This document shows positions 4,263-29,525 of a stretch of 32,000 nt of DNA, piece by piece. Positions within the stretch are counted from its first letter, which is position 1. Every line of letters begins with the position of its first letter. The DNA lies in assembly GCA_016699935.1 (NCBI GenBank), contig CP064992.1, positions 210,001-242,000 of the forward strand, written 5' to 3'. This DNA is from Candidatus Saccharimonadota bacterium (GTDB lineage: Bacteria > Patescibacteriota > Saccharimonadia > Saccharimonadales > UBA4665). The position numbers were made by a program, and so were the translations under genes. The notes under the pieces were generated by a model, which saw only the letters and a program-made list of their open reading frames with translations, was not told the DNA's origin and did no database searches.

Positions 4263-5331
4263 ATGGAGTCACTCATTACACTAGGTTGGAATGACGACTT
4301 GCAGCATGCATGGGACACTATGAATATGTCACCTTTCGTGCCTGGTCGTGTCATTGCTGACTATGGCTCAAGCTACAAGGTAGCCATCCCAGCTGAGCTC
4401 AGTGCGGAAATATCTGGCCGACTGGAATATGTATCTGAGCCCCACGAAATGCCGAAAGTTGGCGACTGGGTTGCGGTGCAGCAACTCGATGAGGATCGTG
4501 CCCTGATACATGCGGTACTACCCGCAAAAGCGAGATTGGTCGCAAACAGCCCGGCGAACAGTATGTGAAACAAGTATTGGCTACCAATGTAGATATCGCC
4601 TTTTTGGTTCAGTCGCTAGACCATGACTTCAGTCCCGAGCGTATACAGCGCTACCTTTTTCAGCTAGGCAACGAAGGTGTAAAACCAGTTATTGTGCTAC
4701 ATAAAGCAGACAAAGAAACCGACATCCAAAAGTAAGCTGCAGAGGCTACAAGCCTTCAACATCCGGGTAGTCGTTTCGAGCGCTACGCAGCAGACAGGTA
4801 TCGATGAGATAGCTAGCATCATAACTCCTGGGACTACTGCTGTTTTCTTGGGTTCTTCCGGCGTCGGTAAATCGACCATCATAAATCTTCTTCTAGGTGA
4901 AAACAAACAACCTACGCACGAAGTACGAGAAGCCGACTCAAAGGTCGTCACACAACGACGCATAGAGAGCTATTTACGCTGCCAAATGGTGGGCTCGTGA
5001 TAGATACGCCTGGTCTGCGTGAACTACAGCTGTGGGGGTCGAAGCCGATCTCGAGGGAGCTTTTACAGATATCGAAGCGCTGGCTAAAGAGTGCCGGTTC
5101 AACAATTGCAGTCATACGAGCGAACCCGATTGTGCGGTCTTGCAAGCAGTTGCTATGAACACGCTAGATGGCAAGAGGCTAGAATCGTATTTCAAATTTC
5201 AGAAAGAACTACGATTCTTGGAAACTAAAGTCGATGAAAATGCCGCCATAGAACAACGGCAACACGAAAAGAAACTAGGCAAATACTACAAACAAACCTT
5301 GCACGACATATACGAAATCAAAGGCAAATAA
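4263..5331 (+). pseudogene. rsgA: Ribosome small-subunit-dependent GTPase A; at least 4 frameshifts as sequenced
   Basis: Pieces across frames follow RsgA order: GRVIADYGSSYKV..VGDWVAV..IHAVLPAK | VLATNVDIAFLVQSLDHDFSPERIQRYL..VIVLHKAD | [28 protein letters not shown] | [31 protein letters not shown] | [16 protein letters not shown]. Breaks fall at A/G runs (~4545, ~4730, ~4940, ~5035). Confidence 0.85.
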
Positions 5332-5401: not shown

Positions 5402-5806
5402 TTGATGATGAGCAACTCAAATAGTAAAGCAGTCGTTCCTGGTGGAGTGGATGAATACATTTCAGATTGCCCCGACGTAATCCAGACAAAGCTACGAGAA
5501 ATACGGTCTGCCATACGCGAGGTAGCCCCCGACGCCATTGAAACCGTCAGCTATTTTGGTATCCCGGGCTACAGCTATGCAGGCTATGACTACAATGGTA
5601 TGTTTGCCTGGTTTAGCTACAAAACGCCCTATATACGACTCCACGTGCGCCCTCCCGTCGCCAAAGACCACGCCGCAGAGCTCAAGGGCTGCAAAATATC
5701 AACCGGCATCATAATCTTCCCCGAGAAGCACGATATATCCCCCGAACTTATCCAGAAACTAGTCACCGCAAGCCTGTCCGTCATGAAAACCGGAAGCACT
5801 AGCTAA
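5402..5806 (+). CDS. DUF1801 (YdhG-like) domain protein
   Basis: VDEYISDCPDVIQTKLREIRSAIREVAPDAIETVSYFGIPGYSY fits the DUF1801 N-terminal pattern. The ATG is at 5405. Confidence 0.6.
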   Translation: MMMSNSNSKAVVPGGVDEYISDCPDVIQTKLREIRSAIREVAPDAIETVSYFGIPGYSYAGYDYNGMFAWFSYKTPYIRLHVRPPVAKDHAAELKGCKISTGIIIFPEKHDISPELIQKLVTASLSVMKTGSTS

Positions 5807-5953: not shown

Positions 5954-8682
5954 GTGAATATGTCCGCTCTTCAATTCGACGAATTAAATGGTTTTGATGG
6001 CAGCTTAGAAGATTTTCTCAAGCATATGGAGAGTATTGATGCCGCCCTTGGGAAAATACTCCGCGATAACATCGGTGAACTAAAAGGCGCAACATACGAA
6101 AAAGCCCGTAAAGATGCTCGGGACAGTTTTAATGCAAAGGTAGTTGCCGCTCTTGACGCTCTAAAAAAGAGGAGCAAAAAGATGAGTAGGTACTTCCTAA
6201 CGCGAATTTGCGTCGAGGGTTTTAGGGGTATCAACAACGAGGGTGAGCCTCTGGAACTGAAGTTCAAAACCAATTCTGCAAACTCTGTGTATGCGATCAA
6301 CGGCACGGGCAAAAGCTCGCTATTTGATGCTTTGTGCTACGCCATATGCGGTGACATACCCAAACTCGGCAAGCTACAAGCAATAGAGAAGCCCGAAGAT
6401 TATTACGCAAATAAATTCCACAGCCAAGGAACCGCAATTATCATCCTCGATTTTGAAAGCGATGATGCAACGTCACAAAAAGTTTCGATTCAAGTTGCAA
6501 GGGCAGCCGATGGCACCCGAACGGTCACCAGTCCTAGCGGACATGCAGACCCCAATGGCTTTCTGGAAAGCCTTAACGAGAGTTTCACATTGCTGGACTA
6601 TGAAACATTCTCAACGTTTATAGACCACACTCCCCTAGAACGTGGCCGATCATTTTCCTCTTTACTTGGGCTTGCAGTGTATTCCGACTTCCGGCAAACA
6701 CTGAAGACCGCCATTGACACCCGTGCACTCAATTCTGATCTCGATATAAGCTCTTTGACCTTTCAAGCACAATCAAGCAAAGACGCCACTGCATTAGCAG
6801 TTACTAAACTAGAAACGAATTTCAACGCTCTTGTGGGCAGATCTATTGAGGATGTTACAAAACTAGCTGGCTATAAAGACGAAGCCATGAAAACCCTTGG
6901 GGGAATCAGATTGCTTGGCGAAGAACTTTCCGGAAAAACTATTGACGAAGTAGATTTTGACGAACTTAATAAAATCATCAAAGCAGCCGAGGGCGGTAAA
7001 GAGCGCGTGGAACTCGCAAAAGCCTTAAATACGCTCGCCAAGCTCGATGAAGTAGAAGACGATGACTTGGAAGCCATTAAAACGAAATCGCTGAACATAA
7101 AACTGAAATCGAAAACATCATCGAGCTTTATAAAAAAACTAAAGGTAAATTTTGTCGCACACTATACTCGGCCGCAGAATCACTTTTCAAAAAGCGGCGA
7201 ATGGGATGACGACCACGAATGTCCTGTATGCAGTCAGCACTCGGATGATGATCTATCCGAATCGGTTGGTGAACGAGTAAAAGAATATAAGGATGTCGAT
7301 GATGCAGTTGCTACTTTTCAAACGAAATGGCAACAGAGTAGCTGGCGGCTACGACTGTTAGCTTTAGAGACTCTTGTTACTCCTGACTTACAGGAAAACC
7401 AAAAACTATTCCGCCCTTATGACAACGCAATCATAAGCAGCAAGTTATCGATGCCAGACTATGTGAAACTCGTTGAATATTATGAGAAGCTAGAAGCAAG
7501 ATATACCGCAGCAGTTGCCAAATACACAAAATCAAAGAATGACATTGAAGCGAAGTTACCAAAGTCGCTCGTAACCCTGACTAAGCAGGTCGAGTGTGCA
7601 AAACTATTCCGTGAAGCTTGCAATGACTACGACACTGCCTCTAAAAATACGATACAGCAAGCAAGAAGCTTGCGATACGTAAACGATGGCAACAATTTAT
7701 TACCACGGCAGCTGATACTTACGCAGAAGCTGAAGCGGAATTATCAAAATCCAAAATCGCTGCAATCGAAACAGAGTTCAAAGACATGTTCGCATATGTA
7801 ATGGGCGTAGACGATATTAAACCCAATCTTGAACGCGATGATACGAAAGAAGACCTGCAAGTACAACTAAGTGAGTTTCACGGACTTAAAGATGTATCCG
7901 CGCGTGCGCTGCTTTCTGAAAGTTACCGGAATGCGCTGGCCATATCTGTTTATTTGTCTGCTGCGATTAACCATAGCGGTGTGCCGCGTTTTATTGTACT
8001 TGATGATATTACCTCTAGCTTCGATTCAGGCCATCAAATTAATCTCATGGAATATATCCGTACGAAATTGCGATACCCCGAAAATGCAAAGGGACTGCAG
8101 TTTATTATCCTCAGCCATGATGGAATCATGCGTAAATATTTTGATGGCCAAAACCAGGAAGCCGGCTGGCACCACCAATCTATCGAGGGGAACCCGCCCG
8201 GCGTAATTACTACTCAGTCACAGGACGCCAATAGAGTTCGTACTTTAGCAATGAGTTTCTTAAGTGCTGGTCAAGTAGATGTTGCCCAACCCTGGGCACG
8301 GCAATATCTAGAATTCACTCTCATGCAAATTATTCGAAAATTAAATATCCCAGTGCCAATTGATTTCGCGGTGAAAGACCATTCTCGCATGATATCTAGC
8401 TGCTTAGACGCAATTAAGAGCCAGGTCGCACTCCATGAAGCCGCCGGAGATATAATTCTAGACACAACGCAACTCGCAGATTTCAAGAATACATACACCC
8501 CCCAGATGGTATCAAACTGGGTCAGTCATTATGAAACAGCAGCCGGAACTAGTATATCCGCTCCTGTTATGACTGGGGTGCTAGATACGGCCGACAAGTT
8601 AGCGGACTGCTTCAAGTATGACGATACCGATGCAAGCGGTACTCGCATTCGAAAATGGTACAAAAACCTAACCTCAAATTAA
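5954..8682 (+). pseudogene. SMC/Rad50-like ABC ATPase with CxxC zinc hook and an extra ~190-aa C-terminal domain (RloC/PrrC-like, AAA_13-type); frameshifted as sequenced
   Basis: The motifs are Walker A INGTGKSSLFDALCYAICG, a long helical middle, HECPVCSQ, signature-like LSESYRNALAISVYL, Walker B PRFIVLDDITSSFD and ILSHD. The C-terminal domain carries ARQYLE and NWVSH. ORFs 5954..7801 and 7786..8682 join by a shift near 7650-7690, and a compensated double shift seems to lie at ~7080-7200. An alternative start is ATG 6182, 7 nt after AAGAGGAG. Confidence 0.6.
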
Positions 8683-8925: not shown

Positions 8926-9363
8926 ATGACGACGATCAATCCTTATATAAACTTCAATGGGAATGCTGAGGAGGCCTTTCGGTTATATCAGTCTGTATTT
9001 GGCGGAGAGTTCACGGGGCTCGTGCGCTTCAAAGATCTAGAAAGTGCTGATTTCCCCATCCCGACAGAAGATGCAGACAAGCTCATGCGCATCGTCCTGC
9101 CCATAGGCGGAAACAACCTGATAGCCAATGACGTACCAGCTATGCTCGGCCCAGTAAACGAGAACGAAAACCGGTCCAAAATAGCGGTCACGGCGGAAAG
9201 CCGTGAGGAAGCCGAGAGGATATTTGCAGGCCTTTCTGCGGGCGGAGCCGTCGAGATGCCGATGGGTGAAAGCCCGTGGGGTACGTACTTTGCGATGTTC
9301 CGTGACCGCTACGGCATAGAGTGGACCGTAGAATACGCCCCAAACACCACCAGCCAATCGTAA
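8926..9363 (+). CDS. VOC/glyoxalase-fold protein (PhnB/YjdN-like)
   Basis: INPYINFNGNAEEAFRLYQSVFGGE ... WGTYFAMFRDRYGIEWTV, typical of the PhnB-like family. An AAGGCGGAGGG RBS is present. Confidence 0.7.
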   Translation: MTTINPYINFNGNAEEAFRLYQSVFGGEFTGLVRFKDLESADFPIPTEDADKLMRIVLPIGGNNLIANDVPAMLGPVNENENRSKIAVTAESREEAERIFAGLSAGGAVEMPMGESPWGTYFAMFRDRYGIEWTVEYAPNTTSQS

Positions 9364-9523: not shown

Positions 9524-10458
9524 ATGATTGAACACAATCCAAATGTAGGTATTCTCGGAACACACGTTGGGCTGTCACTTTCACCAGTGATGCACAATGC
9601 TGCCTATGAGGCTATGGGCTTACCAGATTACCACTACGGAACATTCACTGTAGCTAACCCACGGCCAGAAGACCTGCAGGCTTTTTTTGAAACTTTTCTC
9701 GCTGAACAAGTTGAAGCTGGTGTCACTGGTATGAGCGTGACTATGCCATTCAAAGAACATGTTTTAGCAGTCAAGGGTCTTGCTCTTTCTAAAGCAGTGC
9801 GAGAGATTGGTGCGGCTAACACACTGAGCTATAAGGAAAATCAATGGCATGCCGAAAACACAGATTGGCAAGGTGCCGTGTTGTCACTAGAAGAAGCTGG
9901 AGTAAGAATTGCGGGTAAAAAGCTCTTGTTCTTGGTGCTGGTGGCGCAGCCAGGGGTGTTGTTTATGGTCTATGTAAGAGCGGTGCTACAGGGATAACAA
10001 TAGCTAATAGGAACCTGGATAGAGCAGCTAGGTTAGCGAATGACCTACAGCGCATATTTGAAATGGCACAGATTATTCCATGCCAGTTGGATATTTTCAC
10101 CGGTGAACCAACAAAGGTTAGTAGTAAAGTAGCTAGAGAAGCCGATATCATCTACAACACGACATCTATCGGTCAAACTAGCACCGAGGAAGAAGGCAAA
10201 TCACCTATGTCACGTGCTATGGTGCAATTATTAAAGCCTGACGCCGCAATAGACGATGCAGTTTACATGCCAATCGAGACTCCGCTGCTAAGCATAGCTC
10301 GTACACGTGGCGGCTTGTTACTGGTGGACGGCACAGAAATGCTGCTTCATCAAGCTGTTGAACAAGTTAGAATATTTACAGGTAAAGATGACGTTCCTGT
10401 AGCCATCATGAGGGAAGCCTTGCGGGCAGAAGTCCTACGCCGACAGGCTGCCGCCTAA
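9524..10458 (+). pseudogene. aroE: Shikimate dehydrogenase; single frameshift in an A run (~9918-9922) as sequenced
   Basis: SLSPVMHNAAYEAMGL, MSVTMPFKE, GAANTL and NTDWQG. In the next frame the sequence continues ALVLGAGGAARGVVYGL..ITIANR..., ending in ORF 10063..10458 (LLHQAVEQVRIFTG). Confidence 0.85.
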
Positions 10459-12473: not shown

Positions 12474-12571
12474 GTAAGGGTTTCGGCCTTGCAAATTAAA
12501 TGCAGTTAAACCCAACCCTGTCTTTCACCCCATCCCAAACTAAATAATGAGTTTCATCATCTGCCAGAAGG
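12474..12571 (+). repeat. Dispersed repeat, copy D
   Basis: gtaagggtttcggccttgcaaattaaatgcagttaaacccaaccctgtctttcaccccatcccaaac..gtttcatcatctgccagaagg. Confidence 0.85.
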
Positions 12572-12635
12572 TTGTATTCTTAGTCTCTGAGTCCCAGTTA
12601 AAATTTACAACTGTAACTTTGATGGTGACCCATCT

Positions 12636-13113
12636 ATGATAATTTGTGAGCAGATTGTTTTACAGGGGCTTTTACGTGATAATCATTGCATGGTGTTAAA
12701 TATCGAAAAATTAGTAAAAGGACTGGCTCCTCTTTTTCGCCAAGCTCGTGAAACTCACAACCAATTCACTCAGGACTGGGACGAGAATTTTCCAGTGCAA
12801 GGTTTAGCCTATAAGGAAACAGATTCGTACCGAAAACGTCTGGAGGAATTTAATCTAGCCCAGGATGAAATCCAAAGCAAGATACTCCCGTTATTGATGA
12901 GCTTAAAACGGCTCAATAACAAATTTGGAAATTGCCTTGGCTTATTTAGCAGTACCGGATCGATATTTCCGTTCGGGATACAACAAAGAGGCCATAATTA
13001 AAGCGCTCAAGCACATTGAGTTATCGCAAGACTTTAAGGATACCATTAGTCATATTTGGCAAACCACAGAATCATCATTGGGTGAGCGTGAGAAAAAGAA
13101 TTCACAAGGTTGA
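12636..13113 (+). pseudogene. Hypothetical protein, one frameshift ~12925 as sequenced
   Basis: ORFs 12636..13001 and 12925..13113 join (..LKRLNNKF | EIALAYLAVPDRYFRSGYNKEAIIKALKH..). I recognise no family. It is boxed by repeat copies D and E. ATG 12690 is a possible true start. Confidence 0.4.
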
Positions 13114-13195
13114 TCGAAAAATATAACAACTCTCACAATTCCTGAAGAATTATTGGGTAGAATAATGGTCAATGGAGTGAATTGAGCAATGAACT

Positions 13196-13294
13196 ATACG
13201 GGCTTCGCCCTTGCAAATGTAATTGCGGATAAACCCACCCCTGTCTTTCACCCCATCCCAAACTATTTCACATTTTCTTCTTCTGTTAGAGGTC
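13196..13294 (+). repeat. Dispersed repeat, copy E
   Basis: tatacgggcttcgcccttgcaaatgtaattgcggataaacccacccctgtctttcaccccatcccaaactatttcacattttcttcttctgttagaggtc. Confidence 0.85.
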
Positions 13295-13414
13295 CATCCT
13301 CTGAGTCCAATTTGCTTTTGCCGCGCGCAAATCGATAAAGATTAGCAGTGAAATATGTGCGGGTTTCGATTATTATTGTTAATAGGTAGCAAAATAAGTG
13401 GAGGCAATACGAAT

Positions 13415-13627
13415 ATGAAACAGAGTAAACCAGTCGTTGAAAAACAAGCGAATAATTACGCGTTATTGGCTGTTGGGTGCTCGTGGATTCCTATAGGACT
13501 GTTATTTATGAAAGAAAATGAATTAGTTGGCTGGAGTTTGTTGGTTATTGGTTTTCCATGGCTTTGTCGGGCATCGTTACCCTGCAAAAGGGAAAGAAAT
13601 AGTAGCCAAAGGTCTTCTCCAGGTTAA
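13415..13627 (+). CDS. Hypothetical small membrane protein
   Basis: The internal ATG has a GGAGG RBS. MKQSKPVVEKQANNYALLAVGCSWIPIGLLF..LVGWSLLVIGF contains two hydrophobic helices. The C-terminus may be frameshifted (alternative frame ends ..SMALSGIVTLQKGKK). Confidence 0.35.
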   Translation: MKQSKPVVEKQANNYALLAVGCSWIPIGLLFMKENELVGWSLLVIGFPWLCRASLPCKRERNSSQRSSPG

Positions 13628-13678
13628 CTATCTGACGGGGAGTATAGTAAGTGTGTATATAGTAAATAAGGAGGACGC

Positions 13679-14671
13679 ATGAAAAAAATATATGGTTTAT
13701 TTGTTCCTGTGTACGCACTAGCTATGGCGATTGCACTTTATCCGACCACACCCGCACAGGCGGCTGCTTTGAAAACGTATACAAACGTCGTTAGTTTAGG
13801 CGATTCTCGTGCCGCTGGTGCGGGACTACCAGCGACTTCGCCCAGTGCTCCTTACGACCTGGCATGCACACGCTCCTCGGCTGCAACAGTCAATCCACTC
13901 GCCTATGTTTTAACGAGCACGCCGTATAACTATGCCTGCTCGGGTGCCACCACCAAAAACCTATGGCAACCCCAGACTGCCATTAACGGCAGTGTCGTGC
14001 CGTCTCAACTCTCCCAAGTACCTGTCGCTGTGTTGAATAATTCTACAACTCTTATCACTCTACAATCTGGGCCAAATGATGTCGGTTGGATCGCTTGGCT
14101 GATCAAGTGCATCCAATCAACATGTGGTAGTACTGAGGACAGTTTTGCGATAAAAGGACAGATCGACACCTATAAGAACGACTTACGATTTGGCCTGGCC
14201 ACACTGGGACAGCTTGCTAACAAATCGACAGTGCTTGTCGGAGGTGTCTACGATCCATTTGTCGGCAGCCAACAGCTTGCTAGCGCATATGGCCTGACCA
14301 CCGCTGAGTATGCTTGGGTCAAAGCCGCCGTTTCGGTTATGAATACCGCTACCAGCGAGGCCGTGACCGAGTTTTCCTCTGCTTACCCAGTTAAGTACGT
14401 AGCGATAAATTTGACAAATCCCTACGAGCTACAGTGGATCAATAGCCATCCAGCTCCATTTCACCCAACCGTCTATGGCCAGTCGATCATTGCCCAAAGT
14501 TTCTTGCCGCCGTCGGCAGATAGTCAGCCAATAATCCCGTCAGGCATCTCCTCTACGTCAACAAACCATCCCAGACGAAACCGACCTCTGTTATTTCACG
14601 ATCCCAGACGAAAAGCCCAAATTCACTTTACCCATCTCTGTACGAGGATAAACCGAGCGACTACTGGTTAG
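13679..14671 (+). CDS. Secreted SGNH/GDSL hydrolase (lipase/esterase-like)
   Basis: A signal peptide is followed by the SGNH blocks SLGDSRAAG, ACSGATT, SGPNDV and FHPTVYGQ. The last ~50 codons look like out-of-frame read-through. One extra A at ccaaag would give ..IAQKFLAAVGR with a stop at 14521-14523. Confidence 0.65.
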   Translation: MKKIYGLFVPVYALAMAIALYPTTPAQAAALKTYTNVVSLGDSRAAGAGLPATSPSAPYDLACTRSSAATVNPLAYVLTSTPYNYACSGATTKNLWQPQTAINGSVVPSQLSQVPVAVLNNSTTLITLQSGPNDVGWIAWLIKCIQSTCGSTEDSFAIKGQIDTYKNDLRFGLATLGQLANKSTVLVGGVYDPFVGSQQLASAYGLTTAEYAWVKAAVSVMNTATSEAVTEFSSAYPVKYVAINLTNPYELQWINSHPAPFHPTVYGQSIIAQSFLPPSADSQPIIPSGISSTSTNHPRRNRPLLFHDPRRKAQIHFTHLCTRINRATTG

Positions 14672-17205: not shown

Positions 17206-17280
17206 TGGTGGCTCCTCCCAGACTCGAACTGGGACACAAGGCTCTTCAGGCCTCTGCTCTACCAACTGAGCTAAAGAGCC
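17206..17280 (-). tRNA. tRNA-Phe (anticodon GAA), CCA encoded
   Basis: The reverse complement is ggctctt-ta-gctc-agttggta-gagc-a-gaggc-ctGAAga-gcctt-gtgt-cccag-ttcgagt-ctggg-aggagcc-a-cca. Confidence 0.9.
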
Positions 17281-20445: not shown

Positions 20446-20522
20446 TGGTGGGTCCTACAGGGCTCGAACCTGTGACCTCAGCAATGTGAATGCTGCGCTC
20501 TAGCCAACTGAGCTAAGAACCC
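20446..20522 (-). tRNA. tRNA-Val (anticodon CAC), CCA encoded
   Basis: The reverse complement is gggttct-ta-gctc-agttggctaga-gagc-g-cagca-ttCACat-tgctg-aggtc-acagg-ttcgagc-cctgt-aggaccc-a-cca. Confidence 0.9.
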
Positions 20523-24949: not shown

Positions 24950-25962
24950 TTGTGCTCAACATTACAGAACATGTTTCGCTGGCTAGCTACCCACGATGCG
25001 GCTTGGTGGTGTGCGGACTATCTCACCGAGATTCATTCTCGTGATGACCTGAAAGAGGCGATTTCCTGGGCAGCGAAAACAGCTCCAATACTCGCGATAG
25101 GTGGCGGCGGTAATATCGTCTGGCGGGATGAGGGTTTCAGGCTCATTATGATAAACCGGATTTTGGCTACGAGATTACGTCTCCTCGACGGCCACTTTAT
25201 AACCAGTTGGTGCCGGCGAAATCTGGAGGACACTGTGGTCGGCAGGAACAGTTGCTGCTGGGCTTACCGGCGTGGCGCTCGATGCTCAGCATACCTGGCA
25301 CTGTCGGTTGCAACCCCAGTACAAAACGTCAGCTGCCTGCGGCCAGGACATCGCTCAGACGCTCACTGGCGTGAGGTATTTGACCGCACAACGGGGCAGC
25401 TGACTACTGTGCCAACAGAAGCCTGCGGGTTCTCGTACCGCACAGCAAGTTTCAGGACGAATACCGCGGACGCTTTTTCATTACCGCCATTACGCTGCAT
25501 CTTGCGGCCGGCACCTTTCCGGCCCTACTACAGCGCCCGTGAAAAATACCTCGCCGAACACCCAGTCGACGGGCCGGTCACTCCGCGAGTCGTTCGCGAT
25601 GCCGTCATCGCCATCAGGAATGCCAAGCTTCCCGACCCAACAGTTATCGCCAACACTGGATCATTTTGCAAACCCCATCGTAGACAGCAAAACGTTCATG
25701 CGGCTTATGGTACCTACCACTATGCCGAATTAGCGAAGACGGTGGTGCTCAAAATCCCGCCGCCTGGCTCATCGAACAGGCTGGCTATAAAGACGTACAC
25801 GATAATAAAACCAGGATGGCCACCTGGCCAACTCAGCACTCGTGTCGTCAGCGAACATGCCGCAAATCCACCGCCGACCTGCTAAAATTCCGCGATGAAA
25901 TCACCCAGGCGGTCCAATCTCTTCGGCATTACCTCGTCCAAGAACCCGAACTACTGCCTTGA
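24950..25962 (+). pseudogene. murB: UDP-N-acetylenolpyruvoylglucosamine reductase; at least 6 frameshifts as sequenced
   Basis: Across frames the blocks follow MurB order: LNITEHVSLASY|TTMRLGGVADYLTEI; PILAIGGGGNIVWRDEGF; SIPGTVG|ATPVQNVS; VFDRTTGQLTTVPTEACGFSYRT; AIRNAKLPDPTVIANTGSF; AAWLIEQAGYKD; ADLLKFRDEITQAV. Stop at 25960-25962. Confidence 0.75.
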
Positions 25963-26077: not shown

Positions 26078-27536
26078 ATGGTTGTTCACCAGTCAGATAT
26101 GCGTCCGAAAGAAAAATGTGCCGTATTCGGGGTATTTGGAGCGAGCCATGCAGTAGAAGCGGCTCGTTTGTCTTTTTATGGCCTATGCGCTTTGCAGCAC
26201 CGTGGACAGGAAAGCTCCGGGATTGCCAGTAGCGACGGCAAAAAACTATATCGTCACAGCGAAGCCGGCTTAGTAGCTACTGTTTTCCGCGAAACAGATC
26301 TAGCAAACTTACCTGGCTATATCGCCATCGGCCATAACCGATACTCGACATCTGGTGGCCAAGACGGCTGCTTCAACCAACCTTTCATCGATACCGAACG
26401 TGGTTTTGCCTTTGCTCACAATGGCAATATACCGGACTGTGGCGAGCTTGAATCATTTCTCAGTAGCCGAAACGTATCGACTGACGAGCTTAACGATTCG
26501 GGCATGATGGCGGCAGCAATTGGGCTCAAGCTCGACGATGGTCTGTCATTGCCAGACGCCATAGCTGCTTGCTATCCACTTTTCACTGGTGTTTTTTCCG
26601 CTGTTGCCATGTCCAAAGATTGTCTCGTCGCCTTCCGTGACAAACATGGCATACGCCCGCTTTCGTTAGGTCAGCTCGAAGATGGTAGTTATGTCGCAGC
26701 TAGCGAAACATGCGCCCTCGACACCATTGCCGCGGCGCACATCCGAGAAATCAAACCAGGTGAAATGATAGCTATCGACAAAACTGGGATGCACGAAACT
26801 CAAGTAGTACCGGGTGAACAAAAGCTCGATATTTTCGAGTTTGTTTATTTCGCACGACCAGATAGCATCATACTTGGGCAAACCGTCAATGATGTCCGCA
26901 TGCAATTCGGCCGCGAAATGGCCGAAGAATGTCCAATAAACGCCGATGTTGTCATACCAGTACCTGACTCTGCTATACCAGCGGCTCTGGGCTACGCCGA
27001 AGCTAGTGGCATACCTTTCGAAATGAACCTTATCAAAACCGCTATATCCACCGAACCTTCATTCGCCCCACGGCCGAGCTACGAGAAAACGACCTTAAAT
27101 GAAGTTGAGATCCGCTCGTCAGCGCCATCCAGGGACGGCGTGTCGTACTTGTCGATGACTCGATTGTACGCGGCACTACCATGCGTAAAACTGTTTCTAT
27201 GCTGCGAGAGGCAGGGGCGACCGAAGTACACTTGATGATCAGCTCGCCGCCAGTGCTCTACCCAGATTTTATGGCATAAATACCCCAAACAATCCGAGCT
27301 AATCGCAACCGGCATGACTGTAGCAGAAATCAATGATTATGTCGGGTCTGACACGCTTCATTTTCTGTCATACGACGGTATGGTCTGCCCGACCACATTA
27401 CCAGAATCAGTTTTTCGGCATCTTGCTTTAACGGCGTTTACCTGACCCCATCGGCCAGCGCGCCAAAGATATTTCACACATCAATCTCGAAGATGTCCTA
27501 GTGAGTAAAAATATAATCACCCCTATACCAGCATGA
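26078..27536 (+). pseudogene. purF: Amidophosphoribosyltransferase; at least 5 frameshifts in the 3' third as sequenced
   Basis: KCAVFGVFG, ALQHRGQESSGIA and IGHNRYSTSG. In other frames: [60 protein letters not shown] and SCFNGVY. The reconstructed stop TGA 27534-27536 overlaps the purN ATG (ATGA). Confidence 0.85.
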
Positions 27537-28189
27537 GACCTTACCGAATAGCTAGACTTGCATCTGGCAGTGGCAGCACCGCCGAAGCGTTTATCCGTAG
27601 CGTACAGGCAAATGCCATGCCTATCGAAATACCATTAGTAATTAGTAACAACAAAGATGCCTATATCCTGGAGCGCGTTAAAAATCTAAATGATGAACTT
27701 GGCCTTGTCATTCAAACTGCCATCATAAACTCTCGCACACAGTCCTCAGACGAAAAAATAGTTCATGGTCAACAGACCGAAGCTGAGCAAGATGCGATAC
27801 TCGATATGCTACAAACAAACGACATCGATCTTGTGCTGTTACTGGGCTACGTGAAGCTTGTCGGTCCTAAGCTGATTGCTGCTTATGGTTGGAGGCCCGA
27901 ATATACTAGTGTATACCAGTCACATATGCTCAATACTCACCCCGGTCTTTTACCAAAGTCCATCGGGACACACGGTCTCGGCACCCAACAGTTTGTGCTA
28001 GACAATAAACAACGCGAAGCCGGTCAGACACTACATGTAGTCAGTGCGGAGTACGACAAGGGCCCGATCATAGCCGAAAACCGAGTGCCGGTCAAAATGG
28101 ATGACACGGCTGAGTCACTTTTCGCTCGCGTGCAGGCGACCGAAAAAGCGCACATTGCGGCTGATGTAATGTCTTTTCTAGAAGCTTAA
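27533..28189 (+). CDS. purN: Phosphoribosylglycinamide formyltransferase
   Basis: RLASGSGSTAEAFI, VISNNKDAYILERV, LNTHPGLLP and HVVSAEYDKGPIIAENRVPV..DTAESLFARV are typical formyltransferase blocks. The ORF is intact. Confidence 0.8.
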   Translation: MRPYRIARLASGSGSTAEAFIRSVQANAMPIEIPLVISNNKDAYILERVKNLNDELGLVIQTAIINSRTQSSDEKIVHGQQTEAEQDAILDMLQTNDIDLVLLLGYVKLVGPKLIAAYGWRPEYTSVYQSHMLNTHPGLLPKSIGTHGLGTQQFVLDNKQREAGQTLHVVSAEYDKGPIIAENRVPVKMDDTAESLFARVQATEKAHIAADVMSFLEA

Positions 28190-28211
28190 GCAAATTATAA
28201 AAAGGAGGGTC

Positions 28212-29525
28212 ATGGCTATGGCAACAGTGCTTATAATAGGTAGTGGCGGGCGTGAACATGCTCTAGCATGGGGTATGGCGCAGTCTTCAGCAGTCGAAAA
28301 AGTATATGTTTCACCTGGAAATGCCGGCACAGCACATGAACAAAAGTGCGAAAATGTTGCCGTTAATGGCGCCTACGAAACAGTAGCCTTTTGCCAAAAC
28401 AACCACATCGACCTTGTAGTAATTGGCCCTGAGGCACCTCTTGTCGAAGGGTTAAGTGATGCGCTGCGCGAGGCTTCGATTGTGGTATTCGGCGCCAGTA
28501 AACTTGCCGCACAGCTTGAAGGCAGCAAGGCATTCGCCACCCAGTTTATGCAAAAGCACGACATCACCATTCCTGAATCGGTTATCGTCACCTCTGCAGA
28601 AGGTGCTGATGCAGCCATGAAAATCTTTGGCGGACCAGAAAATAGCGTTCTAAAGGCAAATGGTTTAGCTGGCGGTAAAGGAGTTTTTCTACCAGATACT
28701 GCCGCTGAGGCAGCTGACGCAATTCAGAAAATTACCAGCGGTGCTATGGACGGTGACGGCAGCCGGTTTGTTGTACAAGCACGCAACCATGGCCCAGAAG
28801 TTTCTGTGTTTGTTTTGAGCGACGGAACGAATTACAAAGTTATCCCACTTGCTTCCCAAGACCACAAGCGCTTACTCGCTGGGGACAAGGGCCCAAATAC
28901 TGGCGGTATGGGTGTGTATGCCCCCCTACCAGACTGGATGCTCAGTGCAGCACAATGGGAAAAGATCGAAGTAATCGCCGAAAAAACCATCACCGCTATG
29001 GCAGCCGAAAACACCCCCTACCAAGGAGTGCTGTACATGGGGCTCATGCTCGCCGAAGAACTCGCTGGCGACCCGCTTGTGATAGAGTACAACGTCCGAT
29101 TTGGGGATCCGGAGACAGAAGTCATCATCCCGCTCCTCCATGGCAATGGTGTCGATATATACGACATGCTGTACGCAACCGCAGCAGGCACGTTAGCCGA
29201 CTTCGCAATGCCAAAAGAAATACATGGCGCTGCCCTGACCATATGTCTCGCCGCCGAAGGCTACCCTGACTCACCTATCCCCGGCAAAGTGGTTGAGGGG
29301 TTGGCTAATGAGTACCGTGATGTCACTGTATTTCATGGTAGTACCAAACTTGATGAATCTGGTCAGGTCGTGACTAGCGGTGGCCGCGTCTTGTATGTCA
29401 CTGGTCTAGGAGTCAACCTAGCAGCCGCCTCACAAGCAGCCAATGCTGCCATAGGCGAATCTGCCATACATTTCCCAGCCATGCAGTACCGCCCCGACAT
29501 CGCCTGGCGTGCCCGCAACCGCTAG
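28212..29525 (+). CDS. purD: Phosphoribosylamine--glycine ligase
   Basis: VLIIGSGGREHALAW, GPEAPLVEGL, LKANGLAGGKGV, GPNTGGMGVY, YNVRFGDPE and TSGGRVL. The ORF is intact at 437 aa. ATG 28218 has the better RBS spacing. Confidence 0.9.
   Translation: MAMATVLIIGSGGREHALAWGMAQSSAVEKVYVSPGNAGTAHEQKCENVAVNGAYETVAFCQNNHIDLVVIGPEAPLVEGLSDALREASIVVFGASKLAAQLEGSKAFATQFMQKHDITIPESVIVTSAEGADAAMKIFGGPENSVLKANGLAGGKGVFLPDTAAEAADAIQKITSGAMDGDGSRFVVQARNHGPEVSVFVLSDGTNYKVIPLASQDHKRLLAGDKGPNTGGMGVYAPLPDWMLSAAQWEKIEVIAEKTITAMAAENTPYQGVLYMGLMLAEELAGDPLVIEYNVRFGDPETEVIIPLLHGNGVDIYDMLYATAAGTLADFAMPKEIHGAALTICLAAEGYPDSPIPGKVVEGLANEYRDVTVFHGSTKLDESGQVVTSGGRVLYVTGLGVNLAAASQAANAAIGESAIHFPAMQYRPDIAWRARNR

Follow-up and report, generated by a model that had tools for sequence, protein, structure and literature searches.

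Between positions 5954 and 8682, a 32,000-nucleotide stretch of the genome of a Candidatus Saccharimonadota bacterium (assembly GCA_016699935.1, contig CP064992.1, positions 210,001 to 242,000; the whole stretch is referred to as the window) carries a two-gene cassette on the forward strand, coding for a small acidic protein and a zinc-hook ABC ATPase with a C-terminal HEPN-like domain. As assembled, two long plus-strand open reading frames (ORFs) in separate frames cover this region (5954 - 7801 and 7786 - 8682). A preliminary description, made from the sequence alone, read them as one protein of about 900 amino acids (aa), but raised the possibility that its first 76 codons were a separate partner ORF joined to the remainder by a sequencing error, and this suspicion was borne out. 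The small partner gene (5960 - 6189, plus strand) encodes about 76 aa (MSALQFDELNGFDG...ALKKEEQKDE, followed by a stop), its true stop codon TAG (6187 - 6189) overlapping the start of the ATPase gene (6182 - 8682, plus strand), which encodes 833 aa once three A-homopolymer indels are corrected. The ribosome-binding site GAGGAG and the ATG of the ATPase gene (6169 - 6184, plus strand), both pointed out before and confirmed in the sequence, lie within the 3' end of the small ORF, an arrangement suggestive of translational coupling. Indeed, homologues of the ATPase begin with MSRF/YFL (MSRYFL...), nearly all of them from the internal ATG equivalent to that at 6182.

The frame changes, all on the plus strand, were placed by tblastn with an 85%-identical homologue (P0001), after a database search with a provisional reconstruction. 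Within the ATPase gene, one A is missing from the A4 run at 7079 - 7082 (predicted true run A5), one A is extra in the A5 run at 7189 - 7193 (predicted true run A4), and one A is missing from the A5 run at about 7643 - 7647 (predicted A6), where the true sequence reads ...ASKKYDTASKKLAIRKRW... The fourth change concerns the A6 run at 6163 - 6168 (predicted A7), where one missing A fuses the small ORF in frame to the ATPase. Adding this A gives the small ORF the end ...ALKKEEQKDE and a TAG that overlaps the ATG of the ATPase (GATGAGTAG). Similarly, the closest relatives (loci L088, L089, and L002) possess a separate 76-aa ORF ending in ...QKDE and a stop, with a GATGAGTAG overlap identical to the nonamer of the window. 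The product of about 900 aa was therefore rejected, as the missing A at 6163 - 6168 artificially joins the 76 codons to the ATPase; the true products are proteins of about 76 aa and 833 aa. All four frame-disrupting indels in these 2.7 kb are A-homopolymers, and in-frame stop substitutions did not occur. Comparison of the ATPase gene with that of L088 yielded proportions of nonsynonymous (pN) and synonymous (pS) differences of 0.084 and 0.81, respectively (pN/pS of about 0.1 versus relatives). Nearby housekeeping genes were broken alike, the RsgA GTPase profile being split over the ORFs 4565 - 4735 and 4692 - 5000 (gene region 4263 - 5331) and the N and C domains of shikimate dehydrogenase (aroE; 9524 - 10458) lying on separate ORFs. 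Because all breaks are situated in A-runs, rsgA and aroE are affected in the same way, and pN is far smaller than pS, the four frame breaks are very probably homopolymer sequencing errors, the locus consisting of two intact genes in the organism. Further along the window, the frame of purF (26078 - 27235) is lost at the 3' end, and an ORF at 24950 - 25885 did not match any Pfam family. Homopolymer indels are evidently frequent in this assembly, where they divide genes or join neighbouring ones, so that its gene calls are unreliable without frame correction.

A database search with the ATPase returned 193 homologues (E ≤ 1e-3), typically of 829 - 838 aa, the best ones being 79 - 85% identical. 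Motif conservation was counted over 253 distinct family sequences, with residues numbered on the 833-aa protein. All motifs that had been read from the sequence before were found on the plus strand where they had been placed, and the Walker, H-loop, and CxxC residues are invariant. With these homologues and this degree of conservation, the features do not stem from chance. The Walker A motif or P-loop reads INGTGKSS (6296 - 6319; K44 in 253 of 253). A helical, coiled-coil insert between the ABC lobes (6690 - 7816; residues ~170 - 546, or ~375 residues) consists of many broken helices, according to an AlphaFold2 (AF2) model of P0001. At its apex, in a loop between the helices 328 - 343 and 363 - 389, lies the zinc hook CPVC (7220 - 7231), with C347 and C350 present throughout (253/253). 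The ABC signature occurs as the variant LSESYRNA (7912 - 7935), of which L, E, and S are invariant; hhalign aligned it with PrrC, and Pfam with AAA_13. It is followed by a Walker B motif of the LDD rather than the DE type together with the D-loop (FIVLDDITSSFD; 7990 - 8025; D608 and D609 in all 253 sequences), the D-loop stretch LDDITSSFD resembling FIDDPVSSLD of PrrC, and by the H-loop ILSHD (8107 - 8121; H646, again 253/253).

The ATPase matched the Pfam families AAA_23 (1.7e-8) and SMC_N, whereas AAA_13 scored below its cut-off (25.6 versus 36 bits) and over profile positions 496 - 578 only, corresponding to the stretch from signature to Walker B in the ABC C-lobe; weak precomputed AAA_13 matches exist for many homologues. 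The NCBIfam models sbcc, recF, and dndD all remained far under their cut-offs (17.5 versus 478.5 bits in the case of sbcc). The best PADLOC match was LmuB (PDLC03859; 1e-22, only 79 bits), covering residues 93 - 724 of a 909-aa reconstruction, followed by mad3. The AF2 model of P0001, with a predicted local distance difference test (pLDDT) value of 82, comprises an N-lobe, the helical insert (170 - 546), a C-lobe, and a C-terminal helical domain. Foldseek with this model retrieved Chaetomium Rad50 (7zr1; 2.5e-11) as top match, then heads of SMC proteins and condensin; Lamassu LmuB (9hqu_A; 5e-10), MukB, and JetC were also matched, among many SMC proteins. Chaetomium Rad50 was the best PDB sequence match too. 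As judged from motifs, profiles, and the predicted fold, the ATPase is a Rad50/SMC/LmuB-like zinc-hook ABC protein.

The extra C-terminal domain announced in the preliminary description is present, with a length of ~150 aa instead of ~190 aa (8221 - 8679, plus strand). It was modelled as an all-helical HEPN-like domain followed by a beta-hairpin (AF2 pLDDT 87.6; predicted template-modelling score 0.82) and represents a candidate RNase effector. Its R-x3-E and (S)H elements, noticed before, are conserved throughout the family. The first, R707-Q-Y-L-E711 (8299 - 8313, plus strand), forms a candidate catalytic Arg/Glu pair, with R and E in 253 of 253 and Q in 237 of 253 sequences; the second, N779-W-V-S-H783 (8515 - 8529, plus strand), contains the candidate catalytic His (252/253), with Asn at H-4 (253/253) and Ser at H-1 (205/253). 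In an alignment of 49 diverse tails (A1), the invariant positions R36, E40, N108, and H112 correspond with R707, E711, N779, and H783, the consensus being R-Q-Y-L-E and [G/A/S]-N-W-V-S-H with a Glu-to-His spacing of 71. When the tail model was compared with the PDB by Foldseek, nine of the ten matches with a low root-mean-square deviation (rmsd; <7 Å) were HEPN proteins, encompassing 2q00/2jpu (probability 0.96 - 0.99, template-modelling score 0.56 - 0.59), 2hsb, 4nqf, 1ufb, 1wol, and 1o3u; the matches outside these ten were generic four-helix bundles (rmsd >10 Å). It can hence be stated with moderate confidence, based on the model, that the tail adopts a fold of the HEPN superfamily, to which the PrrC and RloC nuclease domains belong. 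The best fold match, 2q00, has been assigned to HEPN-T or PaREP1, a family that 'lacks R but H is conserved' (Anantharaman et al. 2013), and His is kept without the motif Arg in the tail as well. The HEPN-T/PaREP1 and c2405 families are precedents for this pattern, and other conserved basic residues may stand in for the lost arginine (Anantharaman et al. 2013). Searches of the tail against NCBIfam and, by Foldseek, against BFVD gave no informative match. Searched against 1.84 billion representative proteins, the profile of the tail yielded 178 matches; among the matches listed, all were members or fragments of the family itself, the most distant ones still being LmuB/mad3-like ATPases.

The small partner is a constant companion of the ATPase. 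A homologous ORF of 71 - 86 aa ends at most 12 nucleotides from the ATPase start, overlapping or abutting it, in 87 of 87 loci examined from many phyla. For instance, locus L001, located on a 917-kb contig and encoding a 64%-identical ATPase homologue, contains a 77-aa ORF that is homologous to the first 76 codons of the window region and the stop codon of which overlaps the ATPase start. The family is acidic (median isoelectric point 4.55), did not match any Pfam family, and has the consensus F-D..sf..N...F....iD.e.A.IL.dN...L....R..ar.eFn.avl.aLd. In the 930 - 967-aa proteins P0089, P0092, and P0112 from Arthrobacter and relatives, a Pro/Ser/Ala-rich linker of ~40 - 70 residues joins the partner module to the N-terminal end of the ATPase. 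This natural fusion argues for a direct physical interaction between partner and ATPase. Given the presence of the partner in all 87 loci and the Arthrobacter fusions, the cassette is, on sequence evidence, a strict two-gene unit, whose small protein would be in stoichiometric contact with the ATPase. The earlier idea of a single-gene defence protein was abandoned accordingly.

The motifs of the tail recall those of two anticodon nucleases, of which RloC was compared by its published description (PMC2610378). RloC proteins (658 - 897 aa) possess the triad Arg-X3-Glu-X36-52-His, with Ser often preceding His (Davidov & Kaufmann 2008, PMC2610378). Essential residues of PrrC are R320, N321 (Asn or Gln among PrrC homologues), E324, R349, N352, and H356 (PMC3025547). 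EcoPrrC, recovered by means of the published LARP peptide, reads LLR320-N-L-Y-E324 and R349-I-I-N352-F-T-S-H356; in the tail, counterparts exist for R and E of the first stretch and for its N/Q position, and for His of the second stretch with its Asn (H-4) and Ser (H-1). At profile level, hhalign of the full-length ATPase with PrrC aligned the ABC C-lobe only (45% probability), and the PADLOC PrrC model recognized a genuine PrrC (6e-148) and never listed the ATPase family, even when the C-terminal ORF was searched at E ≤ 10. The RloC/PrrC-like nuclease candidate of the preliminary description is therefore retained as regards a HEPN-like fold and invariant R, E, and H residues, and not as regards profile membership and spacing. 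Based on sequence comparison and modelling, the cassette ATPase is like PrrC and RloC in its architecture, fold, and motifs, and is not demonstrably a member of their family. Within positions 79 - 1957 of L091, a 95-kb IMG/VR contig classed as viral, the gene for a 396-aa EcoPrrC-type nuclease, which served as positive control, directly follows a gene that looks HsdS-like by sequence.

The pair is rare and scattered. At least 231 GTDB species-representative genomes, ~0.1% of the representatives, encode it, this number being a lower bound as the scan was pattern-based. Carriers include Proteobacteria, Nitrospirota, Planctomycetota, Acidobacteriota, Actinomycetota, Bacteroidota, Atribacterota, and Peribacteria. 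In addition, 19 PLSDB plasmids, among which rhizobial and actinobacterial ones, bear the cassette, annotated just as 'AAA family ATPase' and 'hypothetical protein', and on a conjugative plasmid of Rhodococcus the pair has the relaxase gene on one side and the coupling-protein gene on the other. A phage origin was considered and rejected, since no relatives were found in 50,697 phage records or, by a pattern-based scan, in IMG/VR. Beyond the small ORF, no family-wide conserved neighbour and no conserved nuclease partner occurred in the 87 loci; as had been suggested for the window, an SbcD/Mre11 partner was absent from all of them, and hsd genes did not adjoin the cassette in the window or in these loci. 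Recurrent neighbours were tyrosine integrases (23 loci), an N6/N4 methylase (10 loci), Hachiman HamA with a helicase (9 loci), and MmeI-type restriction-modification (8 loci), besides the YhcG nuclease and AbiV. Homologues hence reside in variable, mobile regions beside known defence genes. In L003 (10599 - 11294) and L004 (3207 - 3902), an AbiV-family HEPN gene lies immediately 3' of the cassette on the same strand, which puts two HEPN-type candidates side by side. In L051 (1866 - 7705) and about eight related alphaproteobacterial loci, genes for a HamA-domain protein, a 1179-aa DEAD/ResIII helicase, and an HTH_3 regulator are found directly upstream and one for a YhcG/DUF1016 PDDEXK nuclease downstream of the cassette. 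The L001 cassette is near genes for a PLD-like nuclease, a reverse transcriptase, and a type IV secretion system (T4SS) pilin. Downstream in this locus (12530 - 13902), the RVT_1 gene contains a (QASK)n repeat, is apparently split, and is overlapped by an opposite-strand helical ORF, the TrbC/T4SS pilin gene being next; it may be a retroelement or a defence-associated reverse transcriptase.

In the window itself, the cassette is bordered by genes for a DUF1801 protein (5402 - 5806) and a Glyoxalase/VOC protein (8926 - 9363), both named before and confirmed, which are in turn flanked by rsgA and aroE. Scans for consensus promoters and terminators around the locus performed no better than on shuffled sequence. 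Transfer RNA genes occur at 1127 - 1203, 17206 - 17280, and 20446 - 20522 (Gly-GCC, Phe-GAA, and Val-CAC); none adjoins the cassette, the site of which hence bears no trace of tRNA-targeted integration. The window also contains the de novo purine synthesis genes purF, purN, and purD (26078 - 29525; purD at 28212 - 29525), the PurD protein being 73 - 79% identical to proteins from metagenome-assembled genomes of Candidatus Saccharibacteria. Host-associated Saccharibacteria are not known to possess a de novo purine pathway.

The interpretation that we favour, with slightly better than even confidence and by analogy with known systems, is that the cassette constitutes a two-gene abortive-defence module resembling RloC and Lamassu. 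Its second gene would encode a homodimerizing ABC ATPase of the Rad50/LmuB type, with a folded coiled coil joined at the CxxC hook and a head bearing the HEPN-superfamily domain. By analogy, this SMC-like module may sense DNA that is foreign or damaged, for instance DNA ends or intermediates of replication, upon which ATP-driven engagement of the heads could juxtapose two C-terminal HEPN-like domains and thereby form or unmask an active site composed of R707, E711, N779, and H783. Such a site would cleave RNA, possibly the anticodon loops of tRNAs as in PrrC and RloC, halting translation in the infected cell; tRNA as the target is proposed purely by analogy with these two nucleases. The small acidic protein may act as a stoichiometric regulator that keeps the complex off until triggered, perhaps as an inhibitor or antitoxin, by mimicking nucleic acid, or as an adaptor in the manner of LmuC. 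More tentatively, and as a possibility rather than an expectation, the cassette may be a new and widespread defence system, in which a Lamassu/Rad50-type DNA sensor is fused to an atypical HEPN RNase that is gated by the ~76-aa protein, has lost the motif arginine, and uses a PrrC-like R-x3-E plus N-x3-H site in its place. Such a system would have arisen independently of RloC, as a convergent design that turns a DNA alarm into RNA cleavage, and would count among the few modules dedicated to immunity that the reduced Saccharibacteria genomes contain.

Several observations weigh against the defence interpretation. The defence role is a prediction from context and analogy, as are RNase activity and its target. 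Concerning the fold, the Foldseek E-values of the tail are weak (0.2 - 4, none below 1e-3), so that support for a HEPN domain comes solely from the match probabilities and from how consistently HEPN proteins recur; no Pfam match was obtained for the tail of any of the 49 members, and a PDB sequence search with it remained without match. The canonical arginine of the HEPN motif Rx4-6H is absent, there being no Arg at H-4 to H-7, and the tail lacks an equivalent of the essential PrrC residue R349. Furthermore, the Glu-to-His spacing of 71 contrasts with 31 in PrrC and 36 - 52 in RloC, and hhalign of the tail with a PrrC alignment reached a probability of 0.4% only, this alignment being shallow (76 - 94% identity, effective sequence number ~1.5). 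The case for an active site made up of R707, E711, N779, and H783 is one of sequence invariance, their clustering in space being assumed. As to context, the neighbour counts include related alphaproteobacterial islands and are hence not all independent, the copy in the window is located between housekeeping genes with no obvious island, and PADLOC v2 does not contain a specific model for the family. A literature search, which did not cover the ABC ATPase classification of Krishnan et al. 2020 that may name the clade, did not yield any paper on the pair.

These observations leave room for other explanations, which concern either the ATPase or the cassette as a whole. A divergent RloC orthologue, i.e. 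a stand-alone wobble-nucleotide-excising nuclease governed by its own Rad50-like region, would account for the similar architecture and size (RloC measures 658 - 897 aa), for the CxxC hook, the R-x3-E...S-H triad, and the DD-type Walker B and DDxxSSxD D-loop shared with PrrC and AAA_13, and for the weak AAA_13 matches of many homologues. This explanation is nevertheless unlikely, as AAA_13 does not reach its gathering cut-off and covers the ABC C-lobe only, the PADLOC PrrC model and hhalign do not connect the family or its tail with PrrC, the Glu-to-His spacing is outside the RloC range, the equivalent of R349 is absent, and the RloC literature consulted (PMC2610378) makes no mention of a small gene as an obligate partner. 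That the protein is instead a repair or recombination ATPase of the SbcC/RecN/Rad50 type, its tail and partner being protein-interaction modules, is suggested by Joint Genome Institute annotations of homologues as 'SbcCD ATPase subunit' or 'RecF' and by Rad50 and SMC proteins being the closest solved sequences and folds. A role of this kind is very improbable for genes that occur in ~0.1% of species representatives scattered over many phyla and are found plasmid-borne or with integrases and defence genes as neighbours, with neither Mre11/SbcD nor another nuclease partner in 87 loci and with NCBIfam scores for sbcc, recF, and DndD far below the cut-offs; moreover, an invariant R/E/N/H set on a HEPN-like fold is hard to explain in a scaffold.

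A small upstream gene overlapping a toxin-like gene is also the classic layout of toxin-antitoxin pairs, in which HEPN toxins are common, and the occurrence of the cassette on conjugative plasmids and beside integrases would fit a module that chiefly stabilizes plasmids and integrative elements, phage defence being incidental. Such an addiction function, which overlaps mechanistically with the abortive-defence interpretation, is rather improbable: the actinobacterial fusions of small module and ATPase speak against an antitoxin that is degraded on its own, an ATPase of 833 aa resembling a DNA sensor would be excessive for simple addiction, and the copy in the window is chromosomal, between housekeeping genes. 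As to the state of this copy, four frame-disrupting indels within 2.7 kb might suggest a decaying pseudogene with genuine frameshifts. There is little chance of this, as every one of them falls in an A-homopolymer, the essential neighbours rsgA and aroE are broken likewise, every catalytic motif is intact with no in-frame stop substitution, and pN lies far under pS.

If the abortive-defence interpretation holds, the cassette would be a compact two-gene addition to the systems that combine an SMC/Rad50-like sensor with a toxic effector, such as Lamassu, RloC, and Wadjet. With its effector fused to the sensor and a tiny regulator, it would offer a tractable model of how head engagement leads to nuclease activation. 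It would further represent a dedicated abortive-infection module in a Saccharibacteria genome of ~1.2 Mb, from the candidate phyla radiation (CPR). Defence systems are generally regarded as sparse in organisms of this kind.

Among known systems, RloC resembles the cassette ATPase in that a single polypeptide carries an ABC head, a CxxC-hooked coiled-coil insert, and a C-terminal nuclease-type domain of the HEPN superfamily, with a conserved Arg-x3-Glu...(Ser)His set, a similar size, and usually no linkage to a type I restriction-modification locus. It differs, by its description, in the Glu-to-His spacing (36 - 52, not 71), and the tail does not display detectable profile homology; in addition, the cassette ATPase scores best against LmuB and not against AAA_13 or PrrC models, and has an obligate, probably translationally coupled, acidic partner of ~76 aa. 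PrrC shares the DD-type Walker B and the DDxxSSxD D-loop, the sets R-[N/Q]-x2-E and N-x2-S-H that match five of its essential residues (R320, N321, E324, N352, and H356), and a nuclease domain in cis with the NTPase, as is required in PrrC. In contrast, PrrC measures 396 aa, has neither coiled coil nor zinc hook, and is encoded within a type Ic hsd locus. Rad50 and SbcC have in common with the cassette ATPase the ABC head, the antiparallel helical insert, and the CxxC zinc hook, Chaetomium Rad50 being the top structural match, whereas the cassette does not involve Mre11/SbcD, its insert is much shorter, its Walker B is of the DD instead of the DE type, an extra C-terminal HEPN-like domain is present, and its distribution is sporadic and mobile.

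The resemblance to Lamassu extends over nearly the whole ATPase, LmuB being its best hidden Markov model match (PDLC03859, 1e-22) and LmuB structures being among the top Foldseek matches. In both systems a DNA-sensing SMC-like protein would govern a toxic effector, as predicted for the cassette. No separate LmuA gene was present at the 87 loci, the candidate effector of the cassette being fused to the C-terminus of the ATPase, and the sole partner is a protein of ~76 aa. Typical LmuC proteins are much larger. In LmuB, the zinc hook is functional and the coiled coil possesses folding points (10.1101/2025.03.14.643221), and the cassette ATPase likewise combines a zinc hook with a coiled coil that folds at several points; a HEPN-type effector, in contrast, does not figure in the effector classes that this study names for Lamassu. 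Finally, the ABC-HEPN families APECO1_4465 and ERFG_01251 carry a C-terminal HEPN domain on an ABC ATPase and occur in mobile or defence contexts (Anantharaman et al. 2013). Compared by description, they differ in being listed as keeping Rx4-6H, the ERFG_01251 domain being described as a 'classical' HEPN domain (Anantharaman et al. 2013). Membership of ERFG_01251 was set aside in view of this motif and of its N-terminal alpha+beta domain of ~240 aa, as opposed to the 76-aa helical partner of the cassette. The fusion of an ABC ATPase with a HEPN domain is, in any case, an established theme.

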